IMG/VR virus record: IMGVR_UViG_2681813205_000011
Length of the DNA: 7,367 nt
Origin: a virus
Lineage: Duplodnaviria > Heunggongvirae > Uroviricota > Caudoviricetes
Strand: one strand, 5' to 3'
Part shown: piece by piece, positions 6,001-7,367 of the stretch
Layout of the letters: every line of letters starts with the position of its first letter
Position numbering within the stretch: the first letter of the stretch is position 1
Position numbers: made by a program

Positions 6001-7367
6001 CTTCAGGGTGGTGTCCGTCACCCGATGGGTGATGGTCCGGATATGTGTCTGCACCTGACAGAGGTCATCCAGATCATCGTCCCGTCGTACCATATCCCTG
6101 GCAGGGTTGAAGGCGTTAGCCGCCACCTCCACGGTCGGGGCCAGAATGGTGTAGCCCGCCGCCTGCCGCCAGTTCAGTAACAGCGCCGTCATCATGATCC
6201 CCGCAGCCAGCGTGGACTTCGAGTTTTTCTTGGGGATAAGGATAAACACTTCCTTGATATGGCGAACACCGGTCTGCGCATCGTAGGAGCCAAACAGGGC
6301 CGCCACCAGGTCAAACACCCACGATGCACAGGACTCCCCGAATGTCGGGCTACCCGGTGCATCCACAATTCGCAGTTGTTTAAAAATCGCCAGTGCATGT
6401 GCAGCCTGGTCCGGATAAATCGGAGCCGGAATAATCGACAGCCCCTTTTTCAGGCGCTCTGCCCAGTCCGGGCAGGCCGTGCTCCACACAGGTATCATCC
6501 GTTGCCCTCATTATCATTATTCACCACCAGGCGGGGTGGTGGTGGCACCGCAAAACGGTTAGCCGCTTTTTTCGCCGCGTCACCTTTTGCCGATTTTTTA
6601 CCGGCATCCCCTTTTTTATGGTGCGTGAACTGCGCCAGCTTATAAGCCGCATCCAGCGCCAGCCTGGGGTCGGTATTAATGTTCTCCACCAGAAGACGCC
6701 CCATCGCTTTCACCGGATCGGGAAGACCATCCTCCATATATTCAATACCAGGAGACATCACCGCGGACGGTGGCATCTCCGGATTGTTTTCGTCCGGCTG
6801 TGGTATTGCAGCCGCCTCACGGCGACGGGGTTTATCCTCCTGCTCTGATTTTTTCTGCCGGTAAACAGGAACCTCATCCACCTCCACCGTCTCGCATTGT
6901 TTACGGGCTATAAACGCAAGCACCTCAGGATCTTTTGCCAGCTGCGAGCCTTTAACCCTGGCGGTCTTCGCCGAATAACCGGCGGCAATGGCTGACGCTG
7001 TTTTGTTTTTCCCGGACATGAGCGCCAGCGCAAATTTTCGTTTTTGCGTTGTCAGCACAGCCTCCTCCCGGGTCCAGAACGCACTCAGCCGGGTATGGTT
7101 CAGCCCATTTTTCCCGGCGTCTCATGCCGCAAATGTTAACTGCTGCCTGGTTAACATTTGCTGAAAAAGCCAGTTAACATTTTTTCCGCACAACAAACTG
7201 AATAATAAAGATAAAAACCGCAAAAATGCCCGGACAGCCAGTTAACATGTTAACTGCCCTGAAACGGGAATTTTTTCTCTGCGTGAGAGGGGGGGCGGTG
7301 TCCGGAGCGATCGTTTTTTTCGCCGGATGATCCCCCCCCCCCGGGGCGGGTCACAGTCCGATGATAT

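Follow-up and report, generated by a model that had tools for sequence, protein, structure and literature searches.

What are the G7, T7 and C11 runs that lie close together in the intergenic DNA ahead of the terminase genes in a 7,367-nucleotide stretch of viral DNA (hereafter, the window)? The initial annotation had raised several answers: the neighbourhood of a cohesive-end nick, a slippage-prone switch of a nearby promoter, the arms of a long-range stem, or an artefact of sequencing or assembly. The answer that emerges below is that the cluster is almost certainly a cos site, with G7 at the heart of its cohesive end and C11 as a candidate upstream element.

A homopolymer cluster between the HNH and terminase genes

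The genes of the window are all on the minus strand, and our reading of the runs gave the same coordinates as those first annotated. The genes and the runs are:

7351-7367, minus strand: 3' end of the HNH endonuclease gene (stop TGA at 7353-7351), extending past the window; mapped from the phage 2851 annotation, with RefSeq 'HNH endonuclease' annotated under the matches in E. coli genomes
7332-7342, feature on the minus strand: C11 run, which is G11 on the packaging strand; sequence reading
7314-7320, feature on the minus strand: T7 run, which is A7 on the packaging strand; sequence reading
7289-7295, plus strand: G7 run; sequence reading
7271-7276, plus strand: T6 run (A6 on the minus strand), within the left-end box described below
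6495-7058, minus strand: terS, small terminase, 187 aa, GTG start; Pfam Terminase_2 (E = 1.5e-08) and phage 2851 annotation
4837-6498, minus strand: terL, large terminase, 553 aa; Pfam TerL_ATPase and TerL_nuclease, and tblastn matches
2995-4773, minus strand: prohead protease/major capsid fusion, 592 aa (Peptidase_S78 and Phage_capsid)
1419-2783, minus strand: portal
526-200, minus strand: head-tail connector

The cluster is real and non-random. When the window is simulated under a Markov-1 model, G/C runs of at least 7 number 2.6 on average (a second such run in the window, C7, is found at 632-638), while a G/C run of at least 11 occurs in 2.5% of the simulated windows and three runs of at least 7 inside 60 nt in about 0.1%. 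G7 by itself is unremarkable.

The three runs fall within the 292-bp spacer that separates the HNH stop (7353-7351) from the terS start (7058), between the HNH gene and the terS/terL genes of the packaging operon; this spacer is the usual location of cos in HK97-type phages. The region matches 93 phage records at 98-99% identity, which are Stx-converting phages such as BP-4795, 2851, 1717 and YYZ-2008 (genus Pankowvirus). It is present in 1216 of the 5426 complete E. coli genomes (∼22%), with a maximum of seven copies per genome, and one complete genome (NZ_CP125889.1) carries a 168-nt copy that is 100% identical, C11 included. The source is very probably a lambdoid prophage of the Stx-converting kind (Pankowvirus, as are BP-4795, 2851 and 1717), whose packaging module is of the 3'-cos, HNH-associated class known from HK97. 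Two features of the neighbouring genes are worth recording. The protease-capsid fusion ORF of the window sits between terL and the portal gene, the usual order being terL, portal, protease, capsid; and in Stx2 phage 1717 (NC_011357, 33510-36483) IS629 interrupts terL, so that the match to the TerL of the window is in three pieces.

The predicted sticky end and nick sites

A search by DNA similarity for records opened at cos found none, and a full-text literature search with cos sequence strings returned only unrelated human and vector papers. Among the tblastn matches of TerL, we picked the Stx1-converting phage Lys8385Vzw (MT225100), whose TerL shares 97.3% identity and begins just 790 nt from the record start. 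Its genes follow the same HNH-cos-terS order, and PhageTerm analysis of its virion reads gave 3' cohesive ends with the cos sequence CGCCCCCCCT (Zhang et al. 2021, PMC7946995). The record ends in ...GGACACCGCCCCCCCT (longer: ...GATCGCTCCGGACACCGCCCCCCCT) and starts with CTCACGCAGAG (longer: CTCACGCAGAGAAAAAATTCCCG). From -70 to +40 around this junction the window is the same as Lys8385Vzw, the length of the G-block excepted (G7 in Lys8385Vzw versus G11 in the window; we call G-block the C11 run as it reads on the packaging strand). Because the published CGCCCCCCCT overhang maps to 7297-7288 on the minus strand of the window, the G7 run is the core of the sticky end. The elements of the site can be placed as follows:

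7332-7342, that is -55 to -45 from the top-strand nick, minus strand: upstream G-block of cos, G11 on the packaging strand; comparison of relatives
7297/7298: bottom-strand nick, between these two positions
7284-7303, minus strand: 20-nt block GGACACCGCCCCCCCTCTCA across both nick sites; identical in Salmonella phage FSL SP-016 and 58 IMG/VR contigs, low-GC phages included
7288-7297, minus strand: 10-nt 3' cohesive end CGCCCCCCCT (plus strand AGGGGGGGCG), holding the entire G7; PhageTerm on the relative Lys8385Vzw
7287/7288: top-strand nick, between these two positions
7265-7287, minus strand: left-end box CTCACGCAGAGAAAAAATTCCCG, with which the packaged genome begins, A6 tract included; kept from E. 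coli to Burkholderia and Xanthomonas phages
7134-7254, strand not assigned: five GTTAACA motifs, partly palindromic; motif count and inverted-repeat listing

The G7-T7-C11 cluster is thereby almost certainly a cos site, as judged from a relative with mapped termini that is identical over the site, and the suggestion that it marked the neighbourhood of a cohesive-end nick proved right: G7 lies inside the 10-nt 3' end published for a near-identical phage. Many prophages of this kind are defective, which we counted against the cos explanation. The left end of the packaged genome is predicted at 7287, running toward terS, and the window would then hold the first 7287 nt of the virion chromosome together with its last 80 nt. 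The identity of cos and its 10-mer are already published for the near-identical phage, and this part of the finding is largely ordinary and known; the Lys8385Vzw paper (PMC7946995) gives the 10-mer only and does not describe other cos sub-sites. Its use here is that the genome ends would be fixed for a prophage family found in ∼22% of complete E. coli genomes, and that a cos site would account for the breaks, and the discrepancies of a few bases, that assemblies show at this place.

The register of the nick region is homologous with that of phages with defined termini, as seen in an anchored comparison with HK97, SfV/SfI, Bcep176, Xp10 and D3. The HK97 record ends in ...ACCGCCGCCAAA and starts with GTTTG; both ends of the Bcep176 record carry the 10-mer CGCACGTTCC, after which comes CTCACGCGCAGAAAA; the Xp10 record starts with CCCATTCGCAGAAAAA and the D3 record ends with GGACACCGCGCCCCCA. 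The virion ends of SfI lack the 10-nt TGCCCGCCCC, which comes after GGAC (PMC3636060; SfV sequence). Among metagenomic and draft IMG/VR contigs, the first base of two (L154 and L139) coincides with that of the homologous CTCA, the predicted left end, and a third (L095) starts 1 nt earlier. This points to assembly ends in public virome data as a way of reading the cos termini of this family.

Close relatives show only substitutions in the 20-nt nick block. The G7 run is constant in length; what changes, among prophages whose TerL is 97-99% identical, is its sequence, by substitution. The cohesive-end variants are CGCCCCCCCT, CGCGCCCCCT, CGCCCCCCGT, CGCGCCCCGT, CTCGCCCCCT, CGCTCCCCCT and CGCCCGACCT; CGCGCCCCCT is the commonest among the loci selected by TerL. 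The G7 homopolymer is one allele of the cohesive end and not a slippage tract. Prophages with such closely similar TerL proteins thus differ in their cohesive-end allele (homologous positions in L075-L152), and single genomes carry up to seven copies of the cos region. Mismatched sticky ends may affect circularisation after cross-packaging between co-resident prophages, and the substitution variants may influence which of these prophage genomes anneal or cross-package.

An upstream G-block at a fixed distance from the cut

We analysed the G-block in relatives picked in two ways. Firstly, in those picked by the 20-mer at the nick (the 58 IMG/VR contigs and FSL SP-016), a G run stands at the same place in every one, including a low-GC group with otherwise unlike flanks. 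Secondly, among 80 loci picked by TerL protein only, those with a cos-like core all carry G6-G11 ending 27-30 nt ahead of GGACAC (63 of 63), and seven relatives at 68-74% TerL identity keep the G run, with spacers that are otherwise unalignable. Over 112 distinct contexts of close relatives the G-block measures G5-G13 (mode 7-8) and its 3' end lies 43-46 nt from the predicted nick; in the window it lies 44 nt ahead of the top-strand nick. In 21 nick-aligned lineages, which include HK97, SfV, Bcep176 and Xp10, the 3' end is found at -42 to -52 from the top-strand nick, mostly at -43 to -47, and its position in D3 and phiE125 reads alike by eye. The block takes the form G9 in HK97, GGGGAGGGGCGGG in SfV, GGGGAGGGGG in Bcep176, GGGTGGGGG in Xp10, GGGGTGGGGCGGG in D3, GGGGAGGGGGG in phiE125 and GGGGGCGGGGCGG in phiC31. 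The distance from G-block to record end is 33 nt in phiC31 and 25 nt in Silvanus, unlike the other lineages, a deviation that is probably due to the way these records were opened. G runs of at least 5 on the packaging strand occur in the same loci at a background of about 8e-4 per nt; on these comparisons chance appears to be excluded for the G-block, with statistics that are indicative only, since the lineages share ancestry. Given that the distance from the HNH stop differs (8 nt in the window versus >260 nt in HK97) while the distance from the nick is fixed, the G-block is anchored to the nick and not to the HNH gene. Open-access literature on HK97 packaging and on cf-PICI and SaPI cos sites yielded no description of an upstream G tract.

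A plausible, if still tentative, reading is that the G-block, with the A-rich segment that comes after it, is a functional cos sub-site, which would act as a cosQ-like signal for termination or for positioning of the cut. Like a cosQ, the G-block keeps a constant place ahead of the nick, on the side packaged last. The position of lambda cosQ relative to the cut, studied by Wieczorek and Feiss, is reportedly comparable to that of the G-block. However, the two are not similar in sequence, the overhangs of lambda are 5' ones made without an HNH partner, and the function of the G-block is putative. In lambda, cosQ stands upstream of the nick, toward the DNA packaged last, and is needed for termination and not for TerS binding (PMC6739421). 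The herpesvirus pac1 signal also comes to mind, with its T-rich segment between G-rich runs and terminase cleavage at a fixed distance (PMC13595911); it recalls the G11-A7-C7 layout of the window with its fixed 44-45 nt spacing, but this is a resemblance only, and pac1, unlike the window, has its two flanking runs of G on the same strand.

In the packaging direction (minus strand), the proposed order of elements is the HNH stop, G11, a 28-nt spacer with A7, GGACAC, CGCCCCCCCT, CTCACGCAGAGAAAAAATTCCC, the GTTAACA array and terS. Terminase and the HNH protein would nick the two strands 10 nt apart, leaving the 3' overhang CGCCCCCCCT with G7 as its core. A motor ending a genome would come from the HNH side and first reach the G-block; the A-rich segment would be next, then the nick site, and last the left end with its bound TerS. 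The G-block would be met about 45 bp ahead of the cut and could be read by TerL, HNH or portal, and not through pairing with the overhang; slippage of its length would be tolerated because the exact length is not critical. For HK97, the TerS site is mapped only downstream of the cut, at +15 to +29 (PMC11331095), and bound TerS is proposed to stall the incoming motor, thereby placing the cut site in the TerL nuclease, while the HNH protein gp74 stimulates cleavage (PMC11331095, PMC9410871, PMC10359639). The need for HNH with TerL in cos cleavage is established for HK97 gp74 (PMC9410871); what the window shows is the gene arrangement. The G-block is a cheap and testable candidate for an upstream (termination) signal of HK97-type cos packaging, with an in vitro system and structures at hand for HK97; as a lead it is modest.

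The G-block might instead be functional in another capacity than termination, either as the place where HNH or TerL docks to make the initial cut, or as a stiff, A-form-prone segment gripped by the portal or connector to hold the last-packaged end, and we consider this rather unlikely. The positional conservation of the block serves docking or grip equally well. The semi-conserved TCAAA and CAAAAGTCTG found after it in many lineages suggest recognition by a protein, and the proteins shared by these lineages are HNH and an HK97-like TerL, the TerS families being different. Against this alternative, HK97 gp74 is described as a stimulator of TerL rather than as a site-specific binder (PMC9410871; PMC13595911).

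It is very unlikely that the runs form a slipped-strand contingency locus, in which HNH or terS expression, or a promoter close by, would be switched by changes in the length of C11 or T7. The comparison of tract lengths among relatives, proposed at the outset, gave one half of what this reading needs. As in a contingency locus, lengths are polymorphic among close relatives (5-13 for the G-block, 5-8 for the A-run), and five haplotypes that are identical across 390 nt of flank differ only in G-block length, as slippage could produce, or errors in sequencing a homopolymer. The promoter half fails: C11 is intergenic, 8 nt past the HNH stop and 274 nt ahead of terS, it lies in no reading frame or promoter spacer, and no promoter-like or terminator-like site involves it. 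The sole sigma-70-like match falls within the GTTAACA array, at 7151-7180 of the opposite strand, and the anchoring of the G-block is to the nick and to neither gene. The late genes of such lambdoid phages are moreover expressed by read-through from a Q-dependent late promoter, which we counted against a promoter switch. As for G7, its constant length speaks against slippage of that run.

A long-range G7:C11 stem enclosing T7, whether an RNA hairpin in the late transcript or a DNA cruciform, serving as a regulatory or terminator structure, is most improbable. The complementarity itself is genuine: the two runs form an inverted repeat (I7/I8) of 10 nt at 90%, minimum-energy folds of both strands pair G7 with C11, and in SfV an upstream GGGGCGGG is likewise complementary to the overhang CCCGCCCC. 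But the fold is no better than those of shuffled sequences (z = -1.1 for RNA and -1.5 for DNA), and there is no covariation. The G-block is kept in 12 of the 21 lineages in which the C run of the cohesive 10-mer is at most 3, HK97, Bcep176, Xp10, L146 and L147 among them; the overhangs of HK97 (CGCCGCCAAA), Bcep176 (CGCACGTTCC) and Xp10 (CGGACAGTCT), with C runs of 1-3, have their G-block at the same distance, and the commonest E. coli variant, CGCGCCCCCT, also breaks the C run. A terminator scan at the site returned zero terminator-like sites and an Rfam search no significant match. With overhang C runs down to 1-3 and the G-block still in place, the G7:C11 complementarity is incidental. Two other structures were rejected: an intramolecular G-quadruplex in the transcript, for which the single G6-G8 run of most lineages does not suffice, and a fold-back triplex of a C-rich overhang with the G-block, for which the polarity is wrong for a pyrimidine motif and the overhang is not C-rich in most lineages.

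Lastly, that the tracts are a homopolymer artefact near a contig or genome end is hardly credible. In its favour, G/C homopolymers of such length invite errors on several platforms, a count of 11 is among the longer ones seen (5 of 68 E. coli-type contexts have at least 11) and some draft contigs break close by (L013, L095). Against it, the tracts recur in more than 100 independent contexts, including the Sanger-era HK97, SfV, D3, phiE125 and Xp10 and complete genomes, one with the identical copy (NZ_CP125889.1), and the length of G7 is constant across relatives. The exact count of 11 in C11 could still carry a homopolymer error.

Likeness to other cos regions and flanking elements

The site of the window resembles that of HK97 in having HNH upstream, terS/terL downstream and, as predicted here, a 10-nt 3' overhang. 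The G9 block of HK97 ends 42 nt ahead of the top-strand nick, its nick region reads ACCGCCGCC versus ACCGCCCCC in the window, and its left end likewise carries an A/T tract. HK97 is without the GTTAACA array, and the distance from HNH to the cut is about 320 bp versus 54-64 bp in the window. The recognition sequence at the left end differs between the two because the TerS family differs, that of the window being Pfam Terminase_2. Bcep176, phiE125, Xp10 and D3 share with the window the left-end box C(T/C)CA..GCAGAAAA and the same 10-nt register, with a G-block about 44-46 nt ahead of the nick (TerL identity to the window, 58% for Bcep176 and 48% for Xp10); their cohesive 10-mers differ, mostly without a C run, and their G-blocks are often split (GGGGAGGGGG, GGGGTGGGGCGGG).

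We offer, as a doubtful generalisation of the cosQ-like reading, that HNH-associated 3'-cos phages share a third cos sub-site, a cosQ analogue with a pac1-like layout. It would consist of a G-block, in many cases with TCAAA or AAAGT after it, fixed some 45 bp ahead of the top-strand nick; it would tolerate length slippage, and in PPompW prophages it is an insertion target of ISEc20. Its range would appear to take in Streptomyces phiC31, D3, phiE125, Bcep176, Xp10, SfV, HK97 and the Stx prophage.

The insertion in question was seen in PPompW prophages of O157 strains (L019, LC567822, 3270-3280 and 4725-4740), where ISEc20, an IS110-family element of 1459 bp, lies inside the C tract homologous to C11. 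It parts the G-block from the nick region, and the far side is without an HNH gene, tRNAs and Q coming next. C4-C5 precedes the left end of ISEc20 at three unrelated sites, and the C run looks like part of the target or core of the element; the exact junction was found in only 24 complete genomes.

Between the G-block and the nick region, the spacer of the window contains the A7 tract, which is A5-A8 in E. coli-type relatives and is replaced in other lineages by the A-rich GTAAACATCG, CAAAAGTCTG or TCAAATCT; by this alignment A7 is a lineage-specific form of an A-rich segment. Two Dam GATC sites, at 7309-7312 and 7329-7332, flank T7, the second sharing its last base with the start of C11 (GGGGATCA, an arrangement also found in HK97). 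Salmonella-type relatives are without these sites (GGGGTATCA), which are therefore probably dispensable.

On the other side of the cut, GTTAACA occurs six times in the window versus 0.4 expected, with five of the six copies in 7134-7254. This array is a likely candidate for cosB-like binding sites of the Terminase_2-family TerS at the left end. In Salmonella relatives (FSL SP-016, 2500-2520) the spacer between cos and terS is only about 50 nt and the ATG of terS lies inside ACATGTTAACAG. The palindrome CAGTTAACATGTTAACTG of the window (7239-7256) is homologous to this terS start region, and past it come about 180 nt with four further GTTAACA copies before the real terS start (GTG, 7058). The array may have arisen by expansion or duplication around an old terS start.
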